This document shows, one piece after another, positions 2,509 to 24,475 of a stretch of DNA of 64,000 nucleotides (position 1 is its first letter; each line of letters begins with the position of its first letter). Below the pieces are notes generated by a model that was given only the letters and a program-made list of their open reading frames with translations, had not been told where the DNA came from and ran no database searches. The stretch comes from Deltaproteobacteria bacterium (GTDB lineage Bacteria; UBA10199; JADFYH01), in the NCBI GenBank assembly GCA_015233135.1, contig JADFYH010000002.1:43102-107101 (forward strand), written 5' to 3'. Both the position numbers and the translations under genes were made by a program.

Positions 2509-5500
2509 CTAATTGTCGAACAGTGGTGGGGGCTGGAACTGCAGGACTTTGTGCCGGTTCATACGGGGAATAACCGCAGGGATTTCATCGCCTGCATTCA
2601 CCCCCCTACCCGCACTTTGGAAAATTCCTGTTAACAATTTCTCTGAAGGATGAGCAGCTTTAAATCTTACACCCATTCTAGAAAGGACACCCTTGCCCCC
2701 CCTCTGAACTAAAAACACCGCAACACCCACAAGTGCCAGTGGCAGACCCGCTTCCTGCACCCCATCGGCTCCATGTAAAAAATGAGCCCCCGCTGCGGCC
2801 AAACTCGGAAAAGTTTCTGCGGCATAATGGAGTAATCTTTCTGAGGCCAGGCTAGAAGCTACACTCAGGGCAATCAGAAGAGCTTTGCCTTTGCTACCCG
2901 TAAGACTACGAACGACGGGCATCCCATCTCCACCCCTCTCCACTAATTCAGTAGGTTCACAGTCCTCAAGCTGTGTGCTATTCCTACTCCGCTCGGCTGC
3001 TGCCATCATCGTTACTCTTTCATCGGCTTCAACATACTCGCCATTGTGTGGATTAAATATCGTCCTTTTGCCTCGAAGAGCTTCTGGAGGAGGTTCAGCC
3101 ATCACATAATTTTTTTTAGGGTCACGTTCAAATTCAAACGAGGGGTCCAAGGGAGGAAGTTCAGGTAAAGCCTCAACTGTTGGAACCGCCAAGGGCAATT
3201 GCATTTCAAATGCCTCAGCTCTACGTCTTGCTGATGATAGTGGATTCAAGCTTATTCTATCGCTTGTAGCGACAGCCGGGGCGGGCATATCGGAAATTCT
3301 TTGGGGAACGCCAGCTCCTTGCTTACTTGAAAAACTAGGTCCAACATCAAAAGTGATATCTGCGGGTCCTACTTTCACCGAAAATTGGAAATGCCGTTTA
3401 AACTCGACACTTCCATCTGGATTTTGCACGCGGACCAGTTCAGCAGGATTAGCTCCTGCCAAAGTTTTGCCAGGTTCTATGACATTAAAATGATAGACTT
3501 TACCTTCAAGCCCTTGGACAAAAATAGTGCCCGACTCGCGCCAAATTTCAATTGCTGGCCTATAGCCGGATTTAGATTCGTAGGTGAGTTTTTGTCTTTC
3601 AATATCCAAATAAATTTTTCGATGAACCCCCTCACCCAAATGTTCAAAAGGATTTCCCAACGCTTGAGTAGTAGGCAACTCACCCAAGGCGGGGAAATCC
3701 ACGAAAGCGTGACATTCAATCTCTCCTCGTGCAATGCATCTCGCCATTCTCGCGGCATCCTCGTAGATCTTTGCAAGCGCGACTTGACCCGCTTCAAATT
3801 GTCGCATTCTTGCTTGATGAGCACGCAAACGAGGCCCTACAAGGGCTAGCAATCCTAACGCTAAAGCAGCAGGTAAACCATAGGTTAACAACTTCTCACC
3901 AAACGATGCAGAATGCAGCGCCACAAACTGCAAAGGATGAGCTTCGCCATCCCCTGCACGCAGCAAGGCAGAAGCCCCCAAAGCCAAAATGGCAGGCAAG
4001 GCCTTTAAGACTCCTCCCCGTTCTGAAGTGGCTGCTTGCGCTGCCTTTGCCGCCTCTTCTCTAATTCGATGACGAATCAAATGTTCGGCAAGTCCATCAA
4101 GCAGATCGGCATGAGGATAGGGATCTTTTTCACCCTCCACCGCAAATCGATAACCAGCGCCACTTGCATTGAGTTTCGCATAAACTTCTGCGCGCAATTG
4201 ACTGCAGGCAACCTCGAGTTCTGTTCCTTCTAGTTTTTCTAATTCGTGAAAAGTTTCAGGATTTTCAACTTTAACGGCAAGTTCCCTAAACAACGCAGTT
4301 AGGGCCTGTTCAGGTAAAGTTAAAGAGCGACTCAGTAGCCTCAAACAATGGTAGACCGATTGATAATGATTCCACCCCTCGACGATGGGGGGACTTGCTT
4401 CGATTTGATTAATCTCCGCCTTTGCAGCTGCAAACAAGCCTGGAAGCTCCTTTGGAGAAGCTTCGCGTAGGATAAAAACGCTAGAAATTCTCTCTGCACT
4501 CAAGGGCACAGCGGGGTCATAAGTTTCATCCACTCCCAGCCTCAAAGCCTCACGCGGGGCAAACAATTCAGTGATGCCATTGGGATTTTTTAAATTTCCA
4601 TCCGGATGGCGTGGCTCGGTACCTCGCACGTATACCTCGTTTCCAGGCACCAAATCATGCGCCAAAGCAAAGTGTTCGGTTTCGAATACCAGGGTATTGT
4701 GAGAGCCCCAGCGGTATTCATGAATGAGTTCACCCACATTCACCTTTTGCCCCACTTTAGGAAATACACGAGAGCTAGACACCAGGGCCGCGGAGGTGCA
4801 AACCATCGCGACACGGCCATGCCTGGGAGTTTTAATAGTGATCACTACTCGATGATTTTTACTTTGAAATTGAGTGCCTTCTCTGCCATCCAGATTCTCC
4901 ACCGCATTTTCCAAACGCAAGGCAGGATCCACCGTCTGTAAAACACCGGGGATCAGCTCCACACTTTCGATTTCTCCGGAAACAGGGGTTAACGTTTGAT
5001 GATAATCTTTAGGAGACAGATAAATTGCCATCGCGGTGAGCGACCTGCCTGCAAATTTGGCGGCCGTACTCTCCCCCAACCCTTCACGCAATTTTAAAAA
5101 GGCATCTCCATTTGGTTTTGCTTCTGTCACCGGCGCCTTACCGGCAAGGCGCACACCGGTATCCAACAAGTTTTCACCGCGCGCCACCCAATCTAAAACT
5201 CCATCGTGATGAGCCTGACCCAGATGAACCGGCAATCCGCCTTCGGGCAGCTTCAGCGCCCGCGTGAAGAAATCGTTAAAGGTACGAATGCCTTTCCAGT
5301 TAAAACGTTCGTCGTGCTCGATCTTAAATTTTTTCACCAAGATTGCACGCAAACTATGCAAAGCCTTCTCACCCCACATTTGAGACAATAAACCAGGAAA
5401 AGCATCTCGAACCTCGTCATAAATTCTACTTATTGGCACGGTAGAACAAAGCTGCTCCAAGGCGGCCGTGAGGGCAGGCGCATCCAATTTTTCGTTATAA

Positions 5501-8500
5501 AAATGATTGGCAGCCAGAAAGAGGCGGGATTTGGGATCTTTGACATCCCCCAAACGAACAAACTCTCTCGGCCAGGCATCCTGGGCATCGTATTGTACCG
5601 CTTCATAAAATTGCCCGGTGTGTTCGTCTCCAAGCATATGCTCTTCAGTTGCCCGACTGAGGGAATCTTGCTGCCAGGTGGAATCATCTACTTTTAATCG
5701 ACTCTCTCCATTTACAGTATGCCTATATCCGTCTACGCTTTGGAGTTCCGGATGAGTAGGCATGTAGTCTTGAGGGCCCTTCACTCCGGGATGGTTCCAT
5801 TCGCTCAACAAGGCCGTGTTCTCCAAACGACGCTCTGTCCACAGATGCCGATAAACTCCAACCGCCAGACCTGCCCCCAAGGTGAGGAGATGAGGCACTT
5901 GAGAAACAAGAGACTCGCCTAACACCAAAGTTTTGGTGGCAATAGAAGACACGCCTAAAAGCAAAGCGGCATAACCAAACTTGCGGTAAGAACCTTTTGT
6001 GAAAGGATGAATGAAGCCACTGAGTAAAGAAGGGACTAACCCTATAATTCCTCCCAAACCCGCTGAGGTAGAGAGCATGGTCAATCCCGTATGAATTCCC
6101 GCTTCAATTTTATTCCACTTGGATTGGCTCTCTCTTTGTTCAGGCGTCCAATCGGCATTTCCTTTTCTGCGATCCAGGCGACGACGATTCACCAGATGTG
6201 CGATCCCCCCCACCAAAGCCAGAGTCACCAAGTGCCCTGGAGTGCTGGCCAGCAAAAAATGCCCCGCGTTTTGTAAAAAGTGGGTCAAGGCAGAAGTGGT
6301 CTCCGCTACAACGGGATGCAACTCTTGCGCCTGGGCCTCAGCGGGTTGAATCAAATGGGTAAATCCAAAAACTCCCACCACCGAGGCAACAGAAACCAAG
6401 GATTGTTTTAAAAATTGACCGGCTGACGCGCCCCTCTCCCTGACCCTCTCCCTCAAGGGGAGAGGGAAATTAGATTTTCCTTCCCCTTGAGGGGAAGGTG
6501 CCTGTAAGGCGGATGAGGTAAGGGCTTCTGAATTGGGATTCACGGCATCAGAATTGGAAATCGGATTGGCATCCAATTGCACACTCCCCTCCTCTGCCCC
6601 TGAGGTAGCTTCTCCCCGAGGAGAAGGGAAGACCGTCTCCACAAAATGCACGGCATCCCCATCGAAGGCCACACGCACTTCATCTCTTTGATGCCGCGCA
6701 GAAAGATCCCGAGCCTGCGTTGCACTTAATCTTTCTCTCAAGGCCATGCGCAGCAAATCGGCTTTGGAAGGCACTCTGACGCTTTCGCGATGAGCGACAC
6801 CTAGACGGGCAGGATGAGAAGCTTGCGCGTGTAAAACATCGAGTGCATTTAAAAGTTCCACAAAACCTTCCAAACGACGAATTTGGGTGGCACGTAATAC
6901 AAAGCTTGCAGACCCACTCACCAAAGATTTTGCAAAACGATTAAAAATCTCCCGTGCTTCCGTGCCAGAAAAATTTTGAAGATAGGCATGCATTTGCGCA
7001 AAATATTGCGCAGGAATTCCACCATTCATGCTGCGTGATAAAAATCGGCTCCGTTCTTCTTCACTCAAATGAAAATTATGACTTTGCTCAATCAAATTTT
7101 CCAGCGAATGCCCACGGGCCTGATATTCCAGCGCTTCAGCGATAATACGTGTGCGTTCATCCAGAGAAAAAGTAGTCAGAGGAAGATTCCCCATTTCTCG
7201 CGAATACACTTCATCAATAAGGGCCACCCGCTCGCGTAAAATTTGACCGACTTCTTCAGGGCTTAAGGCCGCATGAATATCCAGCTGCAAATTCTGACGA
7301 TAGGCCGGCACATTTCCCTGTTCTATCCCATGCAGCACCGCCAAAATGCGTCCACCGTCCGCAGAAAGAGGGTCTAATCTTAATCGCTCAAAAAGATTTC
7401 CATATCGAGGCAGAGTCTCTTTCATGTGGTGAATGGCTTCCCAGCGGTGTTTTAAAGGTCCCAAGACGGGAAGATGCCCAGTGATGCGACCGGCAAGGTC
7501 CATCTGCCCCGCTTCAATTGCTTTTCCGGCGAGCCAGGTTCCCCAGGAGGCGGTTTCTTCGTGTTCTCGCAAACCTACGGCTTCTTGCGCTTTGTCGGCG
7601 GTTAAAAATCCAAGCAGAGTAGAACCCACAAAGTTGGCACTGCCCAAACCCGCTTCGGCGGAATGCACCAATCCCCGCTGAGCCAGGGCAGAGAAGGCAG
7701 AGGAGTCGATCAAACGCACGGCACCTGATCTTAACGGTTTGATAATCCGTGAACCAAACAGCTCTCCATGCCCATGACAGGCCAAAAACATCACCAGGTT
7801 CGACAGATATTTTTTTGAAAGATGATAAGCCCCCAAATTCTCATGACGCCAATTTTGAAAGGCGAGTCGATGATGCGCCGGATCGTGCCTGCTTTGACGA
7901 TAGGCCTGGGCCGCACCGAGGGCGGTTTCCAGACCCACGAACACTGCGGCTTCGCCGGCCTTCATCGCCAGGGTACAAAGCAAACGCCCCCCTAAGCTGG
8001 CACCGATTCGGGCAGAGAAAAGCCCACCAAACATGAAAGGCAAAAGGAAAGAGGCATTCGACCAAACACTGGCCTCCCCATGAATGGGCAGCATCTCAGA
8101 GGCACTGGAAAGCACCCCATTCATTTGGGCACGGTGGCGCAAAAGGTCTTGAAGACCTGAAACCTGATCGGCTGGGGCCCCATTTTCTTGCAACAAAGAA
8201 CAAAGCGACAAAGAAACCTGCGCGGCGTTAAAACGAGAATGAGAGAGCTCTAAGGTGAAGGCCTCCAGATTGGCATTCACCTGCACGGCAGAGAGACCAG
8301 CGACCGAATTGGCATTGATGAAATTCAAGACGAGTTGTCCTATCGAAGTTGCAGAGGCCCTATCTTCGTTGCCTAGCAGGTGGTTGACGGAGGCTTCGAT
8401 GTTAAAGGCAGGCGCCTCGGCGGAATGCTCAAAAAATTCTCTGAGGTGAGTAAATCGAGTTTCCGTCGCAGAGCCCAGTAAAGTTTGCATCGCCTGAGCT

Positions 8501-10428
8501 ACCGTCAAACGATGTTCTGCCTCGGCTGAAGTGAGACGACTAATTTCCTGGATGAATAAATCTTTTTCCGCATTCAAGGCTTCCGCTGTATCTGCCCCTT
8601 CGGAAGCAAGGATCCCGACTTGATGATTGAGTGCAACATCGAGCACACGCAGCAGAGTGGCCGATCTCAGGCTGGCACGCTGGCTATTGACCTGGGTTTG
8701 CAGTTCGTGAGCCAGTTGATTTTCGGGATGCTGCAGCACCATGGCCTCTAGTCGGGACGAAATTTGATCCAGCCGATCTGCCGTGAGCTCATGGGTTTCC
8801 ATCCGAAGCACAGGAAGCACTTGAGCGAGCTCTGTGAGACCGCGTTGCTCTTCGGCACCAAGCCTTGCCCTGCCACGATTTCCGGCCGCGGCACAAAGTG
8901 CTCCGAGACTATCCAAGGCCTGTAAGGCTTCGCTATTCATTCCAACGCGGGTATAAATTTGGGCCAGTTCACGATAAAGCCGGGCATTCGCCAAATTGGG
9001 AGTTTTGTTCGCCAGCTGTTCCGAGACCCTTGCACCCAATTCCCGAACGGCGTCTTGAAGTCCAAAAGAAGCGAGGATCTGCAGGGCCTGTGAGGCATTC
9101 TGAAAACTTTGAGTGGACCAGCAACGACTGCTGTTCGCATTGGGAGCCAGTTGATGAGCGATCAGGGTTTGTCTGAAGAAAGTGTCGGCTGAGATGCTAT
9201 CGAGCTGACTGAGACGTTCTTGCCTTTGAGCCTCCGTCCCCGAAGAAAGATAAGCCTCAAAATCGTTCACCGCTTGCTCCGACAAACGGCCGTAGGCCTG
9301 GCGCGAAAGCCCGGAAAATTCTCTACGAAAAAGATCTCGACCCACAGACGTTTGGGCATAATTTCGAATGAGAGTTCTTAAAATTTCTTGTCCCTGTGCA
9401 GAGAGTGAAGCCCGTGAAAGCGATAAGGTTCGAAGCGCTTCCACACTGGCACTGTGACCAGAATGTTGGATGGTGTGTAAGGCAATGGCCGCAACCCTTT
9501 GGCGTTGTTGGGTCAGCCGTTCCGTCACTTGCGCGCGACGTTCGGCCAGTTGAGTAGGGTTAAGGTGATTCCGTGCCCAGTTTCCAATCGACAAAACCGT
9601 GTGAGCCGTGGCGGTGGCCATCTCATGGGCTAAATCACTGATACTTTTTTCATGATTTGGAGTTTGAGTTTCGCTGAGGTTGCGAGCCGTCAAAAAATCG
9701 ATGTCGGCCAAATAATTATTTTCCAGGCTCTCCCGCAGGGTTTCATTGTGAGCAACAAATTGATCGACCTGTAAAAAAGCGAGAGCAGTTTCGGCGGAAA
9801 CCGAAAAAAGAGAAGCCGCAGAATAAAGCTCCGCGCGCAAATGCAGCAGCTGGCCTATCACCTGCGCTTGCAGTTCTTGGGGCGCAGTCGCCGCATGAGC
9901 CAGAAATTGGGTGGCTGCCATCAGCTCCTGAGCCCGTTCGGTCACATCGTGAGAGGGATGCGACAGAACTTGAGTGATCCGCTCAAAACCACTTTGCAAA
10001 ATGCCTTGGGCATAAGAGGTGCCTTCAAGCGCGGCAGCCAATTGGCGTCTAAGCTGCAGCTGTTGTGGCACAGCCAGGCTTCGACTCTCTTCCGAAAAAC
10101 CTTGAAGGATTTCCGTAATTTTTGTTTCATCTCCCAATTCAACCAAACTGGGGAGAAGCATCAAAAGGGCTTCCTGCCTATCTCTGCCCTGAAGATTTTG
10201 GTGAATGAAATGGAGGCGGTCCCGAGTAAACTCTCTCAAGTTTTCCTGTTCGCCCGAGGAAGCGAATCTTCTGGCCACAATAGCGGCCGGTACTGTTGTT
10301 GCCGGCAACAAGGGAACCACACTTAAATTTCGTGGGGGGGAACCAGGCTCTCCTCCAGAAGAAGTCGCATTGACAGAACTTTCCGGGAGTGAAAAAGGAG
10401 AAACAGCAGGAAGAATTCGAATAGCCAT
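2509..10428 (-). CDS. Giant (2639 aa) multi-domain membrane protein with an embedded phosphatidylserine decarboxylase-like domain (encoded at about 4650-5320).
   Basis: Single uninterrupted 7.9-kb ORF. Central hydrophobic multi-TM stretch. PSD hallmark motifs occur in canonical order and spacing: FNDFFTR, YLSPKDYHQ, and the G-S of YRWGSHNTLVFE at the position of the LGST self-cleavage site. Intervening similarity to E. coli Psd (IPGVLQTVD vs VPGDLFSVN). Confidence 0.8.
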   Translation of the reverse strand: MAIRILPAVSPFSLPESSVNATSSGGEPGSPPRNLSVVPLLPATTVPAAIVARRFASSGEQENLREFTRDRLHFIHQNLQGRDRQEALLMLLPSLVELGDETKITEILQGFSEESRSLAVPQQLQLRRQLAAALEGTSYAQGILQSGFERITQVLSHPSHDVTERAQELMAATQFLAHAATAPQELQAQVIGQLLHLRAELYSAASLFSVSAETALAFLQVDQFVAHNETLRESLENNYLADIDFLTARNLSETQTPNHEKSISDLAHEMATATAHTVLSIGNWARNHLNPTQLAERRAQVTERLTQQRQRVAAIALHTIQHSGHSASVEALRTLSLSRASLSAQGQEILRTLIRNYAQTSVGRDLFRREFSGLSRQAYGRLSEQAVNDFEAYLSSGTEAQRQERLSQLDSISADTFFRQTLIAHQLAPNANSSRCWSTQSFQNASQALQILASFGLQDAVRELGARVSEQLANKTPNLANARLYRELAQIYTRVGMNSEALQALDSLGALCAAAGNRGRARLGAEEQRGLTELAQVLPVLRMETHELTADRLDQISSRLEAMVLQHPENQLAHELQTQVNSQRASLRSATLLRVLDVALNHQVGILASEGADTAEALNAEKDLFIQEISRLTSAEAEHRLTVAQAMQTLLGSATETRFTHLREFFEHSAEAPAFNIEASVNHLLGNEDRASATSIGQLVLNFINANSVAGLSAVQVNANLEAFTLELSHSRFNAAQVSLSLCSLLQENGAPADQVSGLQDLLRHRAQMNGVLSSASEMLPIHGEASVWSNASFLLPFMFGGLFSARIGASLGGRLLCTLAMKAGEAAVFVGLETALGAAQAYRQSRHDPAHHRLAFQNWRHENLGAYHLSKKYLSNLVMFLACHGHGELFGSRIIKPLRSGAVRLIDSSAFSALAQRGLVHSAEAGLGSANFVGSTLLGFLTADKAQEAVGLREHEETASWGTWLAGKAIEAGQMDLAGRITGHLPVLGPLKHRWEAIHHMKETLPRYGNLFERLRLDPLSADGGRILAVLHGIEQGNVPAYRQNLQLDIHAALSPEEVGQILRERVALIDEVYSREMGNLPLTTFSLDERTRIIAEALEYQARGHSLENLIEQSHNFHLSEEERSRFLSRSMNGGIPAQYFAQMHAYLQNFSGTEAREIFNRFAKSLVSGSASFVLRATQIRRLEGFVELLNALDVLHAQASHPARLGVAHRESVRVPSKADLLRMALRERLSATQARDLSARHQRDEVRVAFDGDAVHFVETVFPSPRGEATSGAEEGSVQLDANPISNSDAVNPNSEALTSSALQAPSPQGEGKSNFPLPLRERVRERGASAGQFLKQSLVSVASVVGVFGFTHLIQPAEAQAQELHPVVAETTSALTHFLQNAGHFLLASTPGHLVTLALVGGIAHLVNRRRLDRRKGNADWTPEQRESQSKWNKIEAGIHTGLTMLSTSAGLGGIIGLVPSLLSGFIHPFTKGSYRKFGYAALLLGVSSIATKTLVLGESLVSQVPHLLTLGAGLAVGVYRHLWTERRLENTALLSEWNHPGVKGPQDYMPTHPELQSVDGYRHTVNGESRLKVDDSTWQQDSLSRATEEHMLGDEHTGQFYEAVQYDAQDAWPREFVRLGDVKDPKSRLFLAANHFYNEKLDAPALTAALEQLCSTVPISRIYDEVRDAFPGLLSQMWGEKALHSLRAILVKKFKIEHDERFNWKGIRTFNDFFTRALKLPEGGLPVHLGQAHHDGVLDWVARGENLLDTGVRLAGKAPVTEAKPNGDAFLKLREGLGESTAAKFAGRSLTAMAIYLSPKDYHQTLTPVSGEIESVELIPGVLQTVDPALRLENAVENLDGREGTQFQSKNHRVVITIKTPRHGRVAMVCTSAALVSSSRVFPKVGQKVNVGELIHEYRWGSHNTLVFETEHFALAHDLVPGNEVYVRGTEPRHPDGNLKNPNGITELFAPREALRLGVDETYDPAVPLSAERISSVFILREASPKELPGLFAAAKAEINQIEASPPIVEGWNHYQSVYHCLRLLSRSLTLPEQALTALFRELAVKVENPETFHELEKLEGTELEVACSQLRAEVYAKLNASGAGYRFAVEGEKDPYPHADLLDGLAEHLIRHRIREEAAKAAQAATSERGGVLKALPAILALGASALLRAGDGEAHPLQFVALHSASFGEKLLTYGLPAALALGLLALVGPRLRAHQARMRQFEAGQVALAKIYEDAARMARCIARGEIECHAFVDFPALGELPTTQALGNPFEHLGEGVHRKIYLDIERQKLTYESKSGYRPAIEIWRESGTIFVQGLEGKVYHFNVIEPGKTLAGANPAELVRVQNPDGSVEFKRHFQFSVKVGPADITFDVGPSFSSKQGAGVPQRISDMPAPAVATSDRISLNPLSSARRRAEAFEMQLPLAVPTVEALPELPPLDPSFEFERDPKKNYVMAEPPPEALRGKRTIFNPHNGEYVEADERVTMMAAAERSRNSTQLEDCEPTELVERGGDGMPVVRSLTGSKGKALLIALSVASSLASERLLHYAAETFPSLAAAGAHFLHGADGVQEAGLPLALVGVAVFLVQRGGKGVLSRMGVRFKAAHPSEKLLTGIFQSAGRGVNAGDEIPAVIPRMNRHKVLQFQPPPLFDN
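6431..6500. repeat. REP-like GC-rich palindromic element (ccctctccc...gggagaggg family) inserted in frame within the giant ORF.
   Basis: cccctctccctgaccctctccctcaaggggagaggg followed by ttccttccccttgaggggaagg. Same family as copies at 15511, 16597, 33283, 35166 and 41954. Encodes PLPLRERVRERG in the protein. Confidence 0.6.
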
Positions 10429-16853: not shown

Positions 16854-18770
16854 TCAAATATTCTTTTTAATATAATCCGCAATCCGCAGCGAAAAAGCCA
16901 TGATGGTCATTTGAGGATTTACTCCCAGAGAAGTGGGAAAGATGCTGCCATCGCTAATGAACAAATTGTCCATCTCGTGAACTTTTCCAAAAGAATTGAC
17001 GACCGAATCTTCCGCCTCTGTCCCCATGCGGCAAGTGCCCAAGGGATGAAAGGCCAGCACCTCCATATCCTTTTTTGTCACTTCCAATTTTTCAAAAATT
17101 TCCAGGTCCGCTCTGCTTTTCAAGACAGGCATGGGATGGAAGGGCGTGTAAACTTCTTTTGCGCCCGCTTCAAAAAAAAGCCTGCACAAGAGGCGAGTAC
17201 CCTGAATGAATTTTTTCACGTCGCTTTTTATCAGGTTATACAAAACCATCGGATAATCTTTGGGGCCCAAATAAACACTGCCTCGCGTGTCATCGCTAAT
17301 CATGAAACCAAAACAGGCCAGATGATCGAATTGCTCCATCACCGTTTTATGCTCAAGCCCCATCAACAAGATGGAAGGCCCTCCGATGGGAGGAGTGAAA
17401 ATTCCTTCAAACATGATGCCTTGGTCATTGTAGTCTTCACAATAGTAGCTTTGTGGTACTCCTTCCCAACCCCGCACTTCCTCTTCAAATAAAGCGAAGG
17501 CCTTGCCCGCAGGATGCAGCGTTAAATTCTTACCCACCTCGGCCAAATTCAACTTTGATTTTTTGAGCAGTACAGGAGAAAAAATACTGCCGGCAGCAAG
17601 CACAAACACCTTGGCCTTCACTTTGACCATGGCCCCTTTTTCAGCCGTCAGAGGATCTACAAATTGTGCCCGCACTTCCCGCACCTTTCCTTTCTCATGA
17701 ACAATTTCTTCCACTCGACATTGAGCCAACAGGCGAGCCCCTTGTTGCAGGGCCTGAGGAATGAAGTTGAGTTGCACACTTTGCTTGGCATCCGTGGGAC
17801 AACCTAAAGTACAAACACCACTTCCCTCGCAGTTAATCACATTTCGAAGCAGAGGCTTTCCCTGCATGCCCATTTTTTGAAAACCGCGCTGTATGATTCT
17901 GGCGCTATTCCCTAAAAGATGTTCGGGCACGGGGGTCACATGCAGGATAGACTCAATTTTTTCAAAATAAGGCCGCAAACCCTCGGATGAAATATCTTTC
18001 AGGTCATATTGGGAATTCCATTTTTGGATCACTTTATCCGGTAGGCGAAAACAGGTCCCGGAGTTGATGGTCGTGGTGCCCCCCACGCTACGTCCAAAAG
18101 GTAAAAGGACAGGAGGAAGACCCAAGGCCGCAAAGAGACCCGACTCCCTCCACATCTGACTGATGCGCTTTCCAATAGGCTCTTTAAAATCATTCAGATC
18201 ATAACGCCCACCTTCTTCCAGGATCACCACTTTCAAACCCTGGGCACTCAGTTCGGCAGCTAGAGGAGCTGCCCCTGCGCCTGAGCCAATCACGCACACC
18301 TCGCAATCGAGGGATAAATCTTTATCCGAATGAAGAAGCACATTCTCGGAATGAAGTGCGGGAGAAGCGGGAATCCGCGGCTTTTTAAGATAAAAACCCA
18401 GGGCCTCTTCTACCTTTTTTTGGCTGTAATATTGAGAGATAATTTTGGCTTCCAGCAGTCTGAAAAGGATCTTTTTGGGATAAAAATGAGAATAATAAAA
18501 AGATTGGACAACTTTTTCTTGCTGAAGAGGCTGAAGTTTTAAAAAAGGTTTTAAAAATCGAAGCAGCCCCCCCCACTCCAGCCATTTTAATCCAAGCCTG
18601 AAGGACTGTTGCATAGTGGCTTGGCAACACTGAAGAGATCTCTCCAAAGAATCGACGAGTTGTAAATCTTCACAGCAAAAGGGAAGTTTCTCTGTCTTGG
18701 GAATCAGCAGATCCACCAAAGCCTGAAGTATTTTTCTCTCCTTTGACTTGAATTGAAAGAGTTTACTCAT
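16854..18770 (-). CDS. GMC-family FAD-dependent oxidoreductase (choline dehydrogenase-like) with an N-terminal extension of about 130 aa.
   Basis: FAD-binding fingerprint CVIGSGAGAAPLAAELSAQGLKVVILEEGG. C-terminal GMC substrate-binding region. 638 aa. Confidence 0.75.
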   Translation of the reverse strand: MSKLFQFKSKERKILQALVDLLIPKTEKLPFCCEDLQLVDSLERSLQCCQATMQQSFRLGLKWLEWGGLLRFLKPFLKLQPLQQEKVVQSFYYSHFYPKKILFRLLEAKIISQYYSQKKVEEALGFYLKKPRIPASPALHSENVLLHSDKDLSLDCEVCVIGSGAGAAPLAAELSAQGLKVVILEEGGRYDLNDFKEPIGKRISQMWRESGLFAALGLPPVLLPFGRSVGGTTTINSGTCFRLPDKVIQKWNSQYDLKDISSEGLRPYFEKIESILHVTPVPEHLLGNSARIIQRGFQKMGMQGKPLLRNVINCEGSGVCTLGCPTDAKQSVQLNFIPQALQQGARLLAQCRVEEIVHEKGKVREVRAQFVDPLTAEKGAMVKVKAKVFVLAAGSIFSPVLLKKSKLNLAEVGKNLTLHPAGKAFALFEEEVRGWEGVPQSYYCEDYNDQGIMFEGIFTPPIGGPSILLMGLEHKTVMEQFDHLACFGFMISDDTRGSVYLGPKDYPMVLYNLIKSDVKKFIQGTRLLCRLFFEAGAKEVYTPFHPMPVLKSRADLEIFEKLEVTKKDMEVLAFHPLGTCRMGTEAEDSVVNSFGKVHEMDNLFISDGSIFPTSLGVNPQMTIMAFSLRIADYIKKNI

Positions 18771-18924
18771 AATTGAATATCCCCGAAAACGTTCGAAAAT
18801 CGAACCCCCGTTTTATTTTCAGACATCTTGATTATGAGCGATTCTTTTCAAGATCTCAAATATTATCTCCTAATCTCTATGGAATAATTTAATTAATCAA
18901 AAATTAACATTGTTTAACATTTTT

Positions 18925-18940
18925 TGGCATCGCTTCTGCA
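18925..18940 (+). promoter_or_regulatory. Candidate sigma-54 (RpoN) -24/-12 promoter, TGGCAT-N5-cTGCA.
   Basis: tttTGGCATcgcttcTGCAtt places GG and GC at the exact consensus spacing (TGGCAC-N5-TTGCA), about 185 nt upstream of the 19126 gene. Confidence 0.3.
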
Positions 18941-18952
18941 TTTTCCTCGGGC

Positions 18953-19114
18953 ATGGAAACTACACAAAAAACAAGGTCACCCAGTGACAGCCAAAAAATA
19001 GTTCAAAAACTTCATAAAGAGCTGCTGGAAGGAGTAAAGCGCGGCGAATTTTACGGGGTCGATCAAAAAATAAAAATTTTGCAGCGCAGTATTTCAATTT
19101 CTACCCGCATCTAA
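18953..19114 (+). CDS. Small 53-codon ORF (METTQKTRSPSDSQKIVQKLHKELLEGVKRGEFYGVDQKIKILQRSISISTRI), below the ORF-track size cutoff. Doubtful.
   Basis: Open frame between the sigma-54-like promoter and the 425-aa gene. No convincing SD. Confidence 0.2.
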   Translation: METTQKTRSPSDSQKIVQKLHKELLEGVKRGEFYGVDQKIKILQRSISISTRI

Positions 19115-19125
19115 AAAAGGGGGAA

Positions 19126-20403
19126 GTGATGAATATCATCAATTTCAATCAGATCTTGATGGGAAGAGCTTATACAGCCACCTTTCCAAACCTCTGCACA
19201 AATTCAATTTCAAATGAGCTGAGTCCAAATTATGCTCAGATCCTTTCTAGAAACTTTGCCAGAAGCTTTACCAAACGCCTTGAAAATCTTTTACAAAGTG
19301 GACAAGCACAGCCTTCCTCTGCTGCCACACAAAACCAAGTGACTCAAGGAGTTCAAGGTATTCAAGGAGAACAAGGCTTTGTCGCCCAGGTCAACAACGA
19401 GCTGCAGCAGCAAATTTATACCCCAAATGTGGAAGAGCAAAAAAAGTTGAATGACATCAATGCCGACCGGGCCAAAGACGGCAAGCCTCCCATCAATTTT
19501 CAGCAAGTCACCCGTGAAATTGAAAACATCATGAATGATCCCAACCTGGATGAAGGGAAGAAAAAGGATCTCGTTGGAAAAATAAAGGATCGTTTGGGCC
19601 TTGGGAAAGGCGATATGAAGTTTTTATTTACCAAGCGCTTGGCAAAACTTCATGAACAAGCAGCTGATAAATTAAATACCCGTTTAGAAAGTTTGGAAAA
19701 AAATGCAAAAGAGATGGAAAGACTCTACGGCAAGAATAGTCCTCAAGCCTTGCAAGCCAATCAGGCCCTGGAAACCTCCAAAAGTGTTTTAGAACCCCAA
19801 AAACAGCAATGGGAGGCCAAGGCAAACTCTTACAGTAAAATGTTCCCTAGTTTTTGGAGTAAACTGGGAGGGGCATTTAAAAAAGTGGTCTCTGCTGTCA
19901 CCAAAGTGGTCAATGCAGTCGCGCCCATTTTAAAGATGATCCCCGGCATTGGAACGATTGCTTCCCTAGGTTTGGCGGCCATCAACGGGCTCAACAGTAT
20001 CGTCCATGGAGATTGGAAAGGTTTTCTGAAAAATGTGGCCTCAAATCTCGCAAGCGCTGTTCCTGCCTTGGGATCTGCAGTTCAGATGGGCATGAATGCC
20101 TTCAACACCGTAAAATCCTTTGCAAAAGGGAATATCATGGGGGGCCTCGGCGGGCTCATGAATTTCACTGGGGCACTCCCTGAAAAAGTGGGGGACATTC
20201 TCAACAAAGGCTGGTCTGCCTTTGGAAGCATTTACTCGGCGGCCAAAGGAAATTTTATGCCCCTCTTCAATACGGCCCTCAACTTTGCTCCTCAAATTCC
20301 TGGTGTTCAAAAGCTGCAAGAGACTTGGAATAATCTCCAGCAAAAAATACCTGTCCCGCTTAACCAAGGAATACAATGGCTTTCGAGTTGCTTTCCCTTC
20401 TAA
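19126..20403 (+). CDS. Hypothetical secreted/translocator-like protein: Q-rich coiled-coil N-terminal half and a C-terminal Gly/Ala-rich bilobed hydrophobic domain.
   Basis: Good SD (aaaaagggggaagtgATG). No homology recognised. Hydrophobic hairpin VTKVVNAVAPILKMIPGIGTIASLGLAAINGL. Confidence 0.65.
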   Translation: MMNIINFNQILMGRAYTATFPNLCTNSISNELSPNYAQILSRNFARSFTKRLENLLQSGQAQPSSAATQNQVTQGVQGIQGEQGFVAQVNNELQQQIYTPNVEEQKKLNDINADRAKDGKPPINFQQVTREIENIMNDPNLDEGKKKDLVGKIKDRLGLGKGDMKFLFTKRLAKLHEQAADKLNTRLESLEKNAKEMERLYGKNSPQALQANQALETSKSVLEPQKQQWEAKANSYSKMFPSFWSKLGGAFKKVVSAVTKVVNAVAPILKMIPGIGTIASLGLAAINGLNSIVHGDWKGFLKNVASNLASAVPALGSAVQMGMNAFNTVKSFAKGNIMGGLGGLMNFTGALPEKVGDILNKGWSAFGSIYSAAKGNFMPLFNTALNFAPQIPGVQKLQETWNNLQQKIPVPLNQGIQWLSSCFPF

Positions 20404-20445
20404 AAAATTTCACTCGGTGAGTTATAACCGATGTGGAAGGCGCAG

Positions 20446-20490
20446 TGAGAGCCTTGTCCTGATTAGGGATGAGGCTCTCCTGTTTTTGGC
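20446..20490 (+). terminator. Probable rho-independent terminator downstream of the 425-aa gene.
   Basis: Hairpin gagagcc...ggctctc followed by ctgtttttgg. Confidence 0.35.
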
Positions 20491-20681
20491 GTTTCATTTT
20501 CAAACCCCAAAAACACTCAAGCGTCCGAAATTCGAACTGGAAAAAAACGACTTAAAGAACATCAAAATATAACCCACTAAAAAGACAAAGTTTTTTTTCA
20601 AAAAAAACACAGGACGAGTTGGCATCTTCTTGGCATTTACAAGAAAGCGTAAACATCAACAAATTTAAAAAGGAGCCTAAA

Positions 20682-22457
20682 ATGATTTCATTAGCCAACC
20701 GAGACGGAAGCCAAAACCTCTACAACGATTTAAGTTCAGGCGAGGCCATTCAAGAATTGAAAGACAAACACGACTTTTCAACCAAGATGCTGCATCCTCT
20801 GATTAGTGGAGAAGAAATGATGCAGACTATCTTTAAGGGGATTAGCGATTCCGACAACCATGCCGCTAGCAGCGAATACATCGACCTTAAAAAGTTTACG
20901 ACAGACAACAACTACAGAATGACCCCCGAAGCTAGAAACGAATTCAACATTTATGAACGTTATGTACGGAATGCTCAATCTCAGGGCAGAACAGGACTCA
21001 ATCCCTTTGAAATGAAAGGCATGTACATGGAGATGAAAAATGCAAATGTGAATTTCACAACTCCAGCTTCTTTTGATAGCCCTGCTTTCAACCAGATTGC
21101 AGGAAGCACACTCCCTCAATACAACGTCATCGGCATGAATACTCCCATTGTTCCCAGTAATAATGGTTATGTGCCTTCTTTTCCTGGAACAAATTTTGTG
21201 GGACAAACTCCCAGCTGGGCTCCCACGGCAGGAATCGCTGCCAATGAAACGGCCAAGGTATGGGGTGACCCTCATTTTGTAGATCCCGATGGTGGACACT
21301 TTGATGTTCAGGGTGAAGCCGGAAAAACCTACAACATGCTGGACGATAACAATTTGAATTTTAATGCCCGTTTTGATGATGCCGGCAAGGGCACAACGGT
21401 GATTGGACAAACAGGGATTACCTTGCAAGGCTGGCGTGGCACTTCCCAGATTCAATTTTCAAAAGAAGGAACAGCTTCGATCAATGGGCAAATCCTCCAA
21501 CCCGGTGCTATGGAAACTCTGGCAGATGGAGGTCATGCCCTTCTCTCTGAAGATGGAAAAACACTCACCCTCAAAACAGGTGAAGGCTATACCATCACCC
21601 AACGTTTAGTGGATGGACGCATTGATGCTGACGTTAAAAGTCCTGCTGAAGGCATAGACACAGATGGCCGTATGCCTGGAGGTTTACTAGGTCAAACTTT
21701 TGATGCGGATAATGTGGCCCGTAATTCCAGTGGGCATCAAGGAGAAGGAGCTATCGCGGGAACAGTCGGTGACTACGAAGTTCCAGGAGGGGTATTTGGA
21801 TTTGCAAATTCAAACAACATTGCCAGCTATCCTAATCTGGTCAATCCTTACCCCCCCACCTATTCGAATTTTCCTGTGGCAAGCGCTCAAGCGCCTATGA
21901 GCATACCCACTTATACCCCTGCCTTCACAGCCTCTTCTTTGGCCTCTGTGATTCCCCAAGTTATGCCTCAAGCCATCCCTCAAAGCGATCAAAGTCTGGA
22001 TTTTATGCTTTCTCAAACTCAACGCGGTGAACAACAGGCAAGCCTCAACGACAGCAATAGTCAGACAGATAAAATCTTGCAGCAGCTTCTGGTCGCACTG
22101 AAAACTGGAAACATCGATGTAGCAATGCTGCTTTTCTCCGACTTAGAAAGCAAACAATCCACTCAAATGACCGGCATGCTCACTCAACAATTAGTGCAAC
22201 TCCAACAATCACGTAAACAAATGATGATGCAAATGAATCAGAATCAAAACCAGACAGCAGGTCAAAATGGAGTAAATCCACAATCTAACACCGCAGCACT
22301 TCAAGCAAATGTTCAAGAAGTAAATGACAGTATTCAAATGTTGACCAGCTTTATTAAAGATATCAGCGAACAGAAAAATCGTGTGGCAGAATTTGCAAAC
22401 AACTATCTTTCCACTGAACATCAGACCAGCATGGACATCGTTCGGGGAATGAGATAA
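20682..22457 (+). CDS. Protein with a VWD-like domain (GDPH motif) and a Q/N-rich low-complexity C-terminus. Start taken at MISLANRDG, which has a good SD.
   Basis: WGDPHFVDPDGGHFDVQGEAGKTYNML matches the VWD N-terminal signature GDPHYxTFDGxxYxFxGxCxYxL. The C-terminal GGLLGQTFDADNV matches the VWD GLCGNFNGxxxDDF signature. SD aaaaaggagcctaaaATG. Confidence 0.7.
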   Translation: MISLANRDGSQNLYNDLSSGEAIQELKDKHDFSTKMLHPLISGEEMMQTIFKGISDSDNHAASSEYIDLKKFTTDNNYRMTPEARNEFNIYERYVRNAQSQGRTGLNPFEMKGMYMEMKNANVNFTTPASFDSPAFNQIAGSTLPQYNVIGMNTPIVPSNNGYVPSFPGTNFVGQTPSWAPTAGIAANETAKVWGDPHFVDPDGGHFDVQGEAGKTYNMLDDNNLNFNARFDDAGKGTTVIGQTGITLQGWRGTSQIQFSKEGTASINGQILQPGAMETLADGGHALLSEDGKTLTLKTGEGYTITQRLVDGRIDADVKSPAEGIDTDGRMPGGLLGQTFDADNVARNSSGHQGEGAIAGTVGDYEVPGGVFGFANSNNIASYPNLVNPYPPTYSNFPVASAQAPMSIPTYTPAFTASSLASVIPQVMPQAIPQSDQSLDFMLSQTQRGEQQASLNDSNSQTDKILQQLLVALKTGNIDVAMLLFSDLESKQSTQMTGMLTQQLVQLQQSRKQMMMQMNQNQNQTAGQNGVNPQSNTAALQANVQEVNDSIQMLTSFIKDISEQKNRVAEFANNYLSTEHQTSMDIVRGMR

Positions 22458-22480
22458 CATAAGAGGAGATATAAAAAAAG

Positions 22481-22519
22481 AAGGCCTTCCGCTCTCGAAC
22501 TCGGAAGGCCTTCTTTTTT
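22481..22519 (+). terminator. Rho-independent terminator.
   Basis: gaaggccttccgctctcgaactcggaaggccttc stem-loop followed by an 8-nt T-run. Confidence 0.7.
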
Positions 22520-22597
22520 TTGGAGAAGAAAACTAGTTTTGACAAGCATCACTTCTTTTTGCTACAAACTCAAACCGCATTCAACCTAGGAGAAAAT

Positions 22598-22810
22598 ATG
22601 GCTCGCGTAACCGTAGAAGACTGTTTAGAAAATGTTGATAACCGTTTTGGTTTAGTTCACCTGACCGCCCGTCGCGTCAGACAAATTGTAAAAGGCTCCG
22701 AAGTTCTCGTTGACTGTGACAACAAAGATATCGTCACGGCCTTACGCGAAATAGCGGAAGGATATGTACGAGTAGACTCGGACACCCTTCCTCAAAACAT
22801 CGACGAATAG
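22598..22810 (+). CDS. rpoZ: DNA-directed RNA polymerase subunit omega.
   Basis: [30 protein letters not shown] is the canonical RpoZ N-terminus. SD ggagaaaatATG. Confidence 0.85.
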
Positions 22811-22812
22811 AC

Positions 22813-23028
22813 CTAGTCCGTAAGGGTGTTGGTATGGGAAGTCAGCCAATTTTCTAAATACTGCTGCTGAATCCTCCATTGCCCACCCACCTTAAAAGCA
22901 GGAAGATTTTTGCTTTTGATCAACCTATAGATGGTCATCTCATGCAAACTTAGCCTATTGGCCACTTCCTTAATGCTTAGGAACTCTTTCCGACTTTGGT
23001 CCACTACAAAATCCGCCATCTTATCCAT
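22813..23028 (-). CDS. Excisionase-family / AlpA-like helix-turn-helix DNA-binding protein.
   Basis: LSIKEVANRLSLHEMTIYRLIKSKNLPAFKVGGQWRI is the HTH_17 / excisionase-type motif. Small (about 72 aa). Confidence 0.55.
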   Translation of the reverse strand: MDKMADFVVDQSRKEFLSIKEVANRLSLHEMTIYRLIKSKNLPAFKVGGQWRIQQQYLENWLTSHTNTLTD

Positions 23029-23470
23029 AAAGAACCTCCCTTGTGTACCCTGTTTATGAAGCAAGAGATATACCAATTTTAGCCATTTTTGCGTTTTCTA
23101 CTAAAATCAATATATTTTAAATAGTTACACATCTTAATCGGACTGTACTTTCCAAACATTTTTTGAATAAAAGGCATTTTTTACCCACATTGCTGACATT
23201 TTTTTGACTCGAGCCCACTTCCCTGGACAAACAAGACTATTCTCTCCCGGCCCCTCTGAAGAGGGGTGATTATTTTTTACCTCCCCTCTTTTTGACAGGG
23301 AAGAAAATGCGAGAGCATTTTCGGGAGTTCACATTATTCAACGCATTCCATTTTTCCTACACTCGTTCGATTCCCATACGCTCCATTTTTTCACAAATTC
23401 AATAACCCCTCATTTTTCATCAACTCTTTCTTTTCAGCAAACAAGCACAGTTCCTGCTTTGTAACTAAGC

Positions 23471-24475
23471 ATGGAAACTCAACTCTCTTTTAAAGACCGT
23501 GCCAAGCAAGCCTTCTATTTTTATGCCGGGATAGGGCAAGGAGTTGTAGACACCGCCAAAGGCCTAGCCAAGCTCTCTCTGCTCCCCGCCACACAAGGCT
23601 TGGATGCCTTGGGAAAAGCGGCCGATTTTATTTCTCATCCTCAAGAAAAAGCAGAAGCCGCTTATCAGGAAGCAAAGCAGGGGTACAAGGATCTGCAAAG
23701 GCTTTGGAGTCAGCCCAAAGAAGAGATTTCAAAAGGGACAGAAAAACTGGGCAACGCTGTTCAGCACGAGTGGAACGAATTCACAAAGCCTTTTGAAAGT
23801 AGTGACCCCAATGTGAGGGCCAAGGCTTGGGGCGAGACAACTTTTAACGTTGCGTCCTTATTTTATGGTGCGGGGGAATTGAAAGGTGCAAGCGTTGCCA
23901 CAAAAGAACTTTCTGTCTTTAGCAAGGCAGAAATTGCGGAATCGAAAATTGTTTCTCAATTAGCAGAAACGGGCGCTGAGATCGCCTCACCTTCTTCAGC
24001 TGCAAGCAGCACCTTACAAGCTTCAGTTCAGTTGTATGAAAGAATTCCAGCGGGTTTTAACAACAGCAAAGAATTTGAAGAATTTGGAAATCTTTTTAGA
24101 GAAGGCCTCCAAAAAAGTGCTGACCCTGAAGCAATTGGAGTGTTAAGAGGGAGTTCGGTCACTGGGGTGAAACATAAAAATGGTTTACCCTTTGATACGG
24201 GAAAGAGGAGTGATTTGGATTTGACGGTGGTGAGTCCGAAGTTGCTCAAAAGGGCTGAGGAAATGGGAGTGAAATTGAGGGAGGGGAAAACTAGGACTGG
24301 GCCTTTGGATCCAGATTTTTTTAGACAAAAACAAATTCTAAAAAAATTAAACCTATTTGACAGCATTCAATCATTGCGAAGCTTTTCTAATAGAGATGTA
24401 AGCCTTATGATATACGACAGTGAAGCTTCCGTTGCAGGCAGAGGCGAGTATATAAAATTTGGAGATAAGAAATGA
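23471..24475 (+). CDS. Putative polymorphic-toxin-like protein: N-terminal pre-toxin (PT-TG-like) Gly-rich region plus a C-terminal nucleotidyltransferase-fold motif.
   Basis: N-terminus AGIGQGVVDTAKGLAKLSLLPATQGLDALGKAADF. C-terminus LRGSSVTGVKHKNGLPFDTGKRSDLDLTVV fits the GS...DxD minimal NTase signature. Overlaps the downstream small ORF by 4 nt (ATGA). Confidence 0.45.
   Translation: METQLSFKDRAKQAFYFYAGIGQGVVDTAKGLAKLSLLPATQGLDALGKAADFISHPQEKAEAAYQEAKQGYKDLQRLWSQPKEEISKGTEKLGNAVQHEWNEFTKPFESSDPNVRAKAWGETTFNVASLFYGAGELKGASVATKELSVFSKAEIAESKIVSQLAETGAEIASPSSAASSTLQASVQLYERIPAGFNNSKEFEEFGNLFREGLQKSADPEAIGVLRGSSVTGVKHKNGLPFDTGKRSDLDLTVVSPKLLKRAEEMGVKLREGKTRTGPLDPDFFRQKQILKKLNLFDSIQSLRSFSNRDVSLMIYDSEASVAGRGEYIKFGDKK

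Follow-up and report, generated by a model that had tools for sequence, protein, structure and literature searches.

How are three genes for uncharacterized proteins turned on in a bacterium of UBA10199, a phylum without cultured members, and where do their products act? The question is raised by positions 18925-22457 of a 64-kb stretch of DNA (the window; positions 43,102 to 107,101 of contig JADFYH010000002.1, GenBank assembly GCA_015233135.1, recorded as Deltaproteobacteria bacterium). A reading made from the letters of this stretch, here called the sequence-only reading, had noticed a sigma-54 (RpoN)-type promoter upstream of a 53-codon open reading frame (ORF) and of two large genes, gene 1 and gene 2, whose products (protein 1 and protein 2) looked secreted. 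As a whole, the locus is probably best explained as a pair of enhancer-dependent, sigma-54-transcribed units that is conserved in uncultured UBA10199 bacteria. Relatives of both large proteins came almost exclusively from uncultured bacteria, and the names in the genome records of the homologues (HKST-UBA10199, UBA10199-1) point to this phylum, once classed with the Deltaproteobacteria, as the home of the module.

Promoters, palindromes, and the candidate activator

The element that the sequence-only reading had placed at 18925-18940 was confirmed, as was the AT-rich leader in which it was said to lie. Promoter 1 (TGGCATCGCTTCTGCA, + strand; -24 TGGCAT, -12 CTGCA) reads TGGCAT-CGCTT-CTGCA. Its GG and GC are exactly 10 nt apart, equal to the RpoN -24/-12 consensus (TGGCAC-N5-TTGCW), and the region above it (18806-18924) contains 75% A+T versus 55% in the whole window. 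Promoter 1 was the sole match to TGGCAYN5YTGCW in the window, where 0.31 matches would be expected by chance. At least one match was present in 27 of 100 shuffled windows, and the count in the window alone was thus not significant. The motif is beyond chance because it is conserved at orthologous loci, not because of this count.

About 25 related UBA10199 loci (numbered L001 onwards) were compared, and 12 orthologous upstream regions were used for a quantitative alignment. In this alignment TGGCA, TGC, and the following ATG were 100% conserved, whereas the majority frequency was 52% in the 5-nt spacer and 48% across the 30 nt upstream. GG-N10-GC was found upstream of the orthologues at some 15 loci (L001-L008, L017, L018, L024, L025, L027, L030, and L039). 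The fuller form TGGCA[CT]-N5-[CT]TGC[AT] was seen in L001-L008, L017, L024, L025, and L027 and also before L018, a locus with gene 2 only. In a distant sub-lineage of about nine loci (L009-L011, L013, L015, L020, L026, L028, L029, and L031) the small ORF was absent and the element took the form GG-N10-G(A/T). It reads TGGCA-N6-TTGAA or TTGTA there and stands ~40 nt ahead of a Shine-Dalgarno sequence and ATG. The same layout was observed in L030 and L039, but with TTGCT and TTGCG. An invariant core with a variable spacer is the footprint that would be expected of a sigma-54 promoter and not of a palindromic operator. A search for sigma-70-like sites on the + strand upstream of both large genes returned nothing but a weak 9/12 match at 20656-20683, which overlaps the start codon of gene 2.

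A second sigma-54-type element, promoter 2 (TGGCAT-N7-GCA, TGGCATCTTCTTGGCA), is located at 20620-20635 on the + strand. With the same GG-N10-GC spacing, it stands ahead of AAAGGAG and the ATG with which gene 2 starts. Just two matches to TGGCAYN7GCW occurred in the window, namely promoters 1 and 2, and L003, L004, and L006 carry equivalents of promoter 2 ahead of their gene 2 orthologues. A perfect palindrome, upstream activator site (UAS) 1 (GTTCGAAAATCGAAC, 18791-18805), lies 134 nt above promoter 1 and is a candidate binding site for an enhancer-binding protein. UAS2 (GTCCGAAATTCGAAC, 20523-20537) lies between the large genes, 97 nt above promoter 2, and is conserved in L003, L004, and L006. 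Both share the consensus GTYCGA-N3-TCGRAC. When the window was searched for this palindrome with at most one mismatch, two sites were found versus 0.15 expected, one above each promoter. The stretches between palindromes and promoters contain 72-75% A+T. Palindrome-like sites, counted at up to three mismatches over the 12 specified positions, were found 97-158 nt above the TGG of the first promoter in most loci examined, the distant sub-lineage included.

Gene 1 is followed by an intrinsic terminator with a 14-bp stem and a T run (20447-20489, + strand), and equivalent hairpins were present in L001 and L003-L006. The order terminator-palindrome-promoter ahead of gene 2 was also found in L003, L004, and L006. 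Another intrinsic terminator, read from the sequence (GAAGGCCTTCCG ... CGGAAGGCCTTC followed by T8; 22480-22521, + strand), parts gene 2 from rpoZ. Thus, the locus comprises two transcription units. An Rfam scan of 18000-23500 yielded just sub-threshold matches, at the terminator hairpins. The 3' untranslated region (UTR) of gene 1 carries an invariant TGGAAGG (20434-20440, + strand) between a small hairpin and the terminator, which may be a post-transcriptional control element. The element reads GGAUGGAAGG in most members of a set made up of L001, L003-L006, and the window, and GAUGUGGAAGG in the window itself. As a separate observation, GGAUGGAAGG contains the triplet GGA twice and looks like a binding motif of the CsrA type.

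L007, L013, and L015 were found in six-frame scans to encode both the GAFTGA and the Walker A motif. The corresponding activators are proteins of ~550 residues with two FHA domains, a Sigma54_activat domain, and HTH_8, a Fis-type helix-turn-helix (HTH), as assigned by Pfam. The FHA-FHA activator gene is convergent to the gene 1 homologue and lies 0.3-7 kb downstream of it in L007, L013, L015, L020, and L021. About 30 orthologous clusters of the activator, with 53-60% identity, were found. GAFTGA activators are encoded in related genomes, in many cases by the contig that also carries the operon, which shows that sigma-54-dependent activation is in use in the lineage and that a candidate regulator is at hand. 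The FHA-FHA-AAA+-HTH(Fis) protein would be the best candidate; if it is the regulator, the module would respond to Ser/Thr-kinase signaling.

Two further observations were made on activator genes of this kind. L021 (1-2247) encodes part of a giant protein of at least 1541 residues with Ser/Thr kinase, TPR, GAF, and sigma-54 activator domains, which points to extensive kinase-to-sigma-54 signaling in these bacteria. In L019 (1-5978), from the related metagenome-assembled genome (MAG) GCA_024233625.1, the FHA-FHA activator gene lies near a FliJ/YscO-like gene, a gene for an ATPase of type III secretion system (T3SS) type, and fliH. A divergent FliG-like gene and a gene for a sigma-28-like sigma factor are also present there. 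From this cluster it follows that the lineage possesses a flagellar-type export apparatus.

On these grounds we hold a sigma-54/enhancer architecture of the locus to be highly probable. Promoter 1 would transcribe the 53-residue gene and then gene 1, with a stop at the 20447-20489 terminator, and promoter 2 would transcribe gene 2 up to the second terminator. A single dimeric or hexameric enhancer-binding activator, bound to the common palindrome, probably switches on both units jointly by DNA looping. The arrangement resembles that of glnAp2/NtrC and pspA/PspF. Within TGGCAY-N5-YTGCW the spacing from GG to GC is 10 nt, AT-rich DNA separates the promoter from a palindrome ~100-135 nt above it, and activators of the AAA+ class that carry GAFTGA and an HTH of the Fis type are encoded in the lineage. 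It differs in its transcription start, which is predicted to coincide with the first codon of the small gene or to lie no more than 2 nt from it, and in the GA or GT that a sub-lineage has at -12. Moreover, the candidate activator carries two FHA sensor domains, whereas a receiver domain is present in the known system.

The three gene products

The 53-codon ORF that had been noticed between promoter 1 and gene 1 (18953-19114, + strand) proved to be a conserved gene. Its product is a small helical protein, and eight orthologues of 50-54 residues share the pattern ME[KN]...L..G.[FY][YW]G[LV]DQKI..LQR...L..RI. The substitutions per codon position (0.46/0.31/0.60) follow a coding pattern, and the orthologue in L017 was also predicted by a gene caller. 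The ATG follows the C of the -12 GC at 14 nt in the window and at 14-15 nt across the orthologues. Sigma-54 transcription typically starts 11-13 nt past the GC, and a 5' UTR of only 0-3 nt is therefore predicted. No Shine-Dalgarno sequence precedes the small ORF, in contrast to the strong ones before both downstream genes. The mRNA of the small gene is thus probably leaderless or nearly so, as judged from these distances. The distance between promoter and ATG is the same in L018, but the small ORF there is unrelated. In L007, a leader that includes a Shine-Dalgarno sequence was found instead. The small ORF is missing from about half of the lineages. Relatives of the small protein were not found in Pfam, NCBIfam, PADLOC, PHROGs, or the PDB sequences. 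Nor did literature searches, on leaderless transcripts in connection with sigma-54 and on VWD domains and GDPH motifs of bacteria, turn up a description of the module.

Gene 1 (HQM15_01030; 19129-20403, + strand) starts with ATG and encodes a protein of 424 residues that is identical to a GenBank protein from a MAG recorded as Deltaproteobacteria bacterium. The gene thus stands as first described, but not its length of 425 codons, which had been counted from a GTG one codon upstream. The good Shine-Dalgarno sequences ascribed to both large genes are present (GGGGGAAG and AAAGGAG). Protein 1 opens with an S/T/N-rich N terminus, goes on to a charged helical core of high conservation (residues ~80-240), and has a C-terminal half that is hydrophobic and rich in Gly and Ala. 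The coiled coil and the bilobed Gly/Ala-rich hydrophobic domain of the sequence-only reading were borne out; hydropathy and the alignment place the Gly/Ala-rich hydrophobic and amphipathic part at residues ~240-390, encoded by 19846-20298 on the + strand. In the family alignment the conserved core reads PID..TT.EIE.IMND..LSDKEKK..I..IRK.LGLSK.DMK.LFTKRL.KIY, followed by FWSKLGGFFKK and an IPGIG turn. The AlphaFold model is all-helical, with a predicted local distance difference test (pLDDT) value of ~97 at residues 80-240 and low to moderate values in the Gly/Ala-rich half. Around IPGIG (residues ~255-285) lies the only candidate transmembrane hairpin, a borderline one, with hydropathy maxima (KD19, 19-residue window) of 1.63 and 1.74 on the two sides of the turn and AlphaFold confidence values of 61-77. 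The helix ahead of it is amphipathic, and amphipathic moments of 0.5-0.55 were calculated for residues 237-272. It is likely that protein 1 binds to membranes or inserts into them.

An exhaustive profile search at E<=0.001 collected 471 cluster representatives of the protein 1 family. Some members, from other bacteria, are 1000-1700 residues long and carry the core in their middle, without signal peptides (for example, L022 2464-6369). These large relatives (P0166-P0230) have Q/S/T/P-rich N termini and long Gly-rich repeat tails. In 38 long relatives scanned with Pfam, matches were of the repeat type only (ApoLp-III and Baculo_PEP_C), apart from WXG100 in 2 of the 38. A homologue of protein 1 was not found in the plasmid collection. 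Searches of protein 1 against Pfam, NCBIfam, PADLOC, and PHROGs gave nothing beyond a weak match of its hydrophobic region to that of a phage tape-measure protein (E 7e-5). Two groups of similarities were discarded. The family profile matched PDB sequences at the level of coiled-coil noise (FadA; FtbJ, E 0.027). When 28 members were compared with Pfam at E<=1, SXP/RAL-2 (Ani s 5) appeared in 14 and a lipase chaperone in 6; these matches are sub-threshold and were judged to be similarities in helical composition.

For gene 2 (HQM15_01035; 20682-22457, + strand), a VWD-like domain and a Q/N-rich tail had been proposed. Both were found, in a protein of 591 and not 592 residues. In the five-part model of protein 2, helices at the N terminus (residues 20-125) are joined by a disordered linker to a beta-sandwich (residues 190-370), and a Pro-rich linker then leads to three long helices, rich in Q and N, that form the C terminus (residues 435-589). 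The beta-sandwich, encoded by 21249-21791 on the + strand, is a genuine VWD domain by profile and fold. The protein 2 family profile matched the VWD domains of FCGBP with E 4.5e-19. Protein 2 alone stayed below the reporting thresholds of Pfam VWD (PF00094), and a homologue with 45% identity passed the gathering score. NCBIfam, PADLOC, and PHROGs gave no matches to protein 2. The predicted domain has a pLDDT of ~95 over residues 190-370, and Foldseek aligned it, at E 2e-8 to 2e-4 and a probability of 1.0, with MUC2, MUC5AC, MUC5B, FCGBP, and RGMB. WGDPHFVDPDGGHFDVQG opens the domain, whose signature is WGDPH[FY]..DGG.[FY]D.QG. GDPH occupies residues 195-198 (encoded by 21264-21275), and all four of its residues are almost without variation across 34 sequences. 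The orthologue in L008 retains just the C-terminal coiled coil, and the VWD domain is therefore an accessory module.

In FCGBP and mucins, autocatalytic cleavage of the VWD domains takes place at GDPH (PMC8267560). The type III-secreted protein VIC_001052 is cut at this motif too, within an unrelated domain, MIIA, and NopE1 and NopE2 are reported to conserve the motif (PMC6506597). By analogy, protein 2 may cleave itself at GDPH. Its domain is like the VWD domains of FCGBP, MUC2, MUC5AC, and RGM in profile, predicted fold, and the position of GDPH at the domain start (PMC8267560, PMC6506597). Unlike the disulfide-rich animal domains, it is bacterial and belongs to a protein with no cysteines at all, no signal peptide, and coiled-coil flanks; cleavage is only predicted. 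With NopE1/NopE2 and VIC_001052 it shares GDPH, a bacterial origin, the absence of a signal peptide, and, through its VWD relatives, a place inside injectisome clusters. It differs from them in lacking a DUF1521 match and in being a beta-sandwich predicted with a pLDDT of ~95, whereas MIIA is highly acidic and intrinsically disordered (PMC6506597). Assignment of the GDPH region to MIIA/DUF1521 was accordingly rejected in favor of VWD, given the lack of a Pfam match and the confidently predicted beta-sandwich. A flagellar axial protein, which the combination of terminal helices and a central domain might call to mind, was also rejected; no Pfam or structural matches to flagellin, FlgK, or FliD were obtained.

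Site of action of the large proteins

None of the three products has a Sec, Tat, or lipoprotein signal. The lack of recognizable signal peptides that the sequence-only reading had reported was confirmed for the window proteins and extends to 28 gene 1 and 18 gene 2 homologues. In these 46 homologues, the first 25 residues consist to 50% of S, T, N, Q, P, or I and to 11-16% of charged residues, a composition that fits type III signals but is not diagnostic. Bacterial VWD relatives of protein 2 are fused to RTX repeats, dockerin, PA-IL lectin, or HrpK1/NolX fragments. In two independent Pseudomonadota loci such relatives lie inside injectisome clusters of the Rhc type, between sctU and a gene for a YscE-like co-chaperone. 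One is HGN31_RS15525 of the Paracoccus sanguinis plasmid pPspOM122 (NZ_CP051543.1; L041 6761-7813) and the other is P0120 from a Pseudomonadota MAG contig (L042 10001-11005). Over the VWD domain they are 42-45% identical to protein 2, and they likewise lack cysteines and signal peptides. They are unlike it in their length of ~335-350 residues and their Gly-rich flanks; protein 2 has other terminal helical domains and no T3SS link. These loci suggest a conserved but hitherto undescribed family of T3SS-associated VWD proteins, annotated as hypothetical, in Rhc-type clusters.

The two large proteins might have their site of action beyond the cytoplasm, in the envelope, at the surface, or on a second cell, reached by an export route other than Sec. 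We put this forward tentatively, at less than even chances. Export by a dedicated secretion system, which the sequence-only reading had considered, is conceivable and gains some indirect support from the VWD homologues within injectisome clusters, and export overall is plausible but unproven.

Several findings weigh against this picture of jointly activated units with exported products. The C of the -12 element is not universal, and the GA or GT found at about nine orthologous promoters is unusual for sigma-54. Neither rpoN nor any gene for an enhancer-binding protein was found within the 64-kb window. The FHA-FHA activator gene always adjoins yraN, with two unrelated genes between it and gene 1 in L020 and L021, and its proximity to gene 1 may be plain lineage synteny. 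The hydrophobic peak of protein 1 (KD19 1.74) is just borderline for a transmembrane helix, and structure and profile searches yielded no functional relative of this protein. Two further VWD relatives lie outside T3SS clusters. In the annotated contexts, no gene for a secretion apparatus or a TPR class II chaperone was found within 8-10 kb of the operon, and the 64-kb window as a whole contains no recognized secretion apparatus. When seven injectisome proteins were compared by tblastn with 424 kb of related loci, just the flagellar-type ATPase in L019 was detected.

In a first alternative, both large proteins would stay in the cell, protein 1 as a stress protein or a scaffold at the periphery of the inner membrane, induced through sigma-54 and an activator in the manner of the phage-shock (PspF/PspA) response, and protein 2 as its cytoplasmic partner. 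The layout found here, with an activator site above a sigma-54 promoter and a coiled coil that bears amphipathic helices, mirrors the psp system, and the amphipathic moments of residues 237-272 also speak for this reading. The absence of recognized export signals and of linked secretion genes would be explained, as would the conserved position among housekeeping genes such as rpoZ. However, Foldseek gave no PDB match of the protein 1 model to the PspA/Vipp1/ESCRT-III fold, or any other match, at E<=0.001, and Pfam matches to this fold were also absent. To our knowledge, all characterized VWD domains are extracellular. The bacterial VWD relatives are fused to RTX, dockerin, and lectin modules or are encoded in T3SS clusters. 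The conserved GDPH cleavage motif is hard to reconcile with the cytoplasm. We therefore regard an intracellular pair as doubtful, at roughly one chance in four.

A T3SS translocon-like pair, exported by an unlinked injectisome or by the flagellar apparatus, is an unlikely alternative that nevertheless accounts for several features. The membrane-inserting translocator of the pair would be protein 1, with protein 2 as tip protein, adhesin, or harpin-like partner and the small protein as export co-chaperone. Protein 1 is similar in size to YopB, IpaB, and PopB, and like them it lacks a signal peptide and has an unstructured S/T/N-rich N terminus and a coiled coil with a bilobed hydrophobic region behind it. 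The charge-poor, S/T/N/I/Q-rich N termini of the 46 homologues, the injectisome-linked VWD homologues, and the HrpK1/NolX fusions point in the same direction. So do the self-cleavage at GDPH that is documented for type III-secreted VIC_001052 and reported for NopE1/NopE2 (PMC6506597) and the FliH/FliI/FliJ-type export ATPase cluster beside the FHA-activator orthologue of the related MAG. However, the translocator-like label that protein 1 had received turned out to describe a resemblance only, with no match in family, structure, chaperone, or T3SS context. At E<=0.01 the window protein 1 matched none of the translocator Pfam families (SseC/YopB/IpaB, YopD, IpaC/SipC, and HrpK1/NolX). Translocators were absent from the 25 families most often matched by 28 members at E<=1, the exception being NolX in two members (E 0.029), and the protein 1 family matched no solved T3SS translocator at E<=1. 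In contrast to YopB/IpaB/PopB, protein 1 is accompanied neither by a TPR chaperone gene nor by linked T3SS genes, the only exception in the 424 kb being L019. Its hydrophobic segments, borderline for membrane spanning and far below true transmembrane hairpins, are followed by Gly-rich amphipathic repeats. Moreover, gene 1 occurs alone, without gene 2 or the small ORF, in many lineages.

A wider version of the exported-protein reading, which we consider improbable, would see in the locus a phylum-wide system for attack on or attachment to cell surfaces, in which a switch from Ser/Thr kinase through FHA activator to sigma-54 would jointly induce a micro-protein encoded without a leader, a membrane-inserting helical protein of a new class, whose core is also part of the giant proteins of other bacteria, and a cysteine-free VWD protein that cleaves itself at GDPH, with unlinked export. 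The exit route would be the flagellar export gate or some pathway without a linked apparatus.

We give little credence to the view that protein 1 is a membrane-permeabilizing toxin or bacteriocin-like effector with glycine-zipper-type repeats, with the small protein serving as chaperone or immunity protein and protein 2 in targeting or adhesion. The Gly-rich AKGN/GxxxG-type repeats with their weak likeness to phage tape-measure hydrophobic regions, the core within multidomain proteins of 1000-1700 residues, the WXG100 matches in two of the scanned long relatives, and the tight coupling of the small gene upstream are compatible with it. Against it, gene 1 is a single-copy, syntenic chromosomal gene throughout the phylum, unlike variable polymorphic toxin loci. 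Furthermore, an immunity-like membrane protein is lacking, about half of the lineages do not have the small ORF, what Pfam matched in the large relatives was of a low-complexity, repeat-like type, and PADLOC gave no matches.

That TGGCA-N6-TGC is an ordinary transcription factor site or a chance match, with transcription from a sigma-70 promoter, would agree with the 27 positive shuffles and the missing -12 C of about nine orthologues but is very improbable, since the element is not palindromic, keeps the sigma-54-critical bases invariant at fixed spacing at some 25 loci with a variable spacer, recurs before gene 2, stands at a fixed distance from the small-ORF ATG with a palindrome at enhancer distance, and is accompanied on the + strand by no sigma-70-like site but the weak one at 20656-20683, in a lineage in which sigma-54 activators are abundant.

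Neighborhood and implications

The preferred reading, two jointly activated sigma-54 units, applies to a locus that is embedded in housekeeping genes. In the window, the surroundings comprise genes for a divergent GMC oxidoreductase, EamA, an M15 peptidase, and a P-type ATPase, together with rpoZ, pheST, thrS, infC, rpsA, and purine and menaquinone genes. L003 repeats the window order, with the GMC oxidoreductase gene pointing away and the small ORF, gene 1, and gene 2 running toward rpoZ. In L017 the small ORF, gene 1, and gene 2 are also followed by rpoZ, but the upstream neighbor differs from that in the window. The position of the operon among housekeeping genes (rpoZ and others) is conserved across the annotated contexts. 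The GMC oxidoreductase gene (16854-18770, - strand) has its start codon 21 nt from UAS1; an activator at this site could also influence it, and the same pairing was seen in L001 and L003.

Three other features of the window were recorded. A 2639-residue ORF (2509-10428, - strand) has as its sole recognizable domain one that resembles phosphatidylserine decarboxylase (residues ~1780-1933), the remainder being unannotated. An AbiEii toxin/AbiEi antitoxin pair (type IV toxin-antitoxin/abortive infection; 36451-38221, - strand) lies between meaB and a methyltransferase region. A single ORF of 724 residues (61770-63944, - strand) fuses an N6 DNA methylase to type I restriction-modification specificity (HsdS-like) domains.

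The regulatory device is itself of a well-known type, and current knowledge is not overturned by it. The locus provides a comparatively validated case of sigma-54/enhancer regulation in UBA10199. The candidate activator palindrome and the two-promoter regulon could serve to find the remaining regulon in these genomes, and the unusual promoter-to-ATG geometry implies leaderless translation from a sigma-54 promoter. All three products belong to uncharacterized families, of which that of protein 1 has now been delineated as a sizeable one (the 471 cluster representatives at E<=0.001). The VWD/GDPH assignment and the injectisome link are the most useful functional leads. A protein annotated as hypothetical has been given a real fold, VWD with GDPH, and a bacterial VWD family has been tied to injectisome clusters of Pseudomonadota, which suggests that self-cleaving GDPH domains are wider spread among exported bacterial proteins than the known cases, NopE and MIIA.

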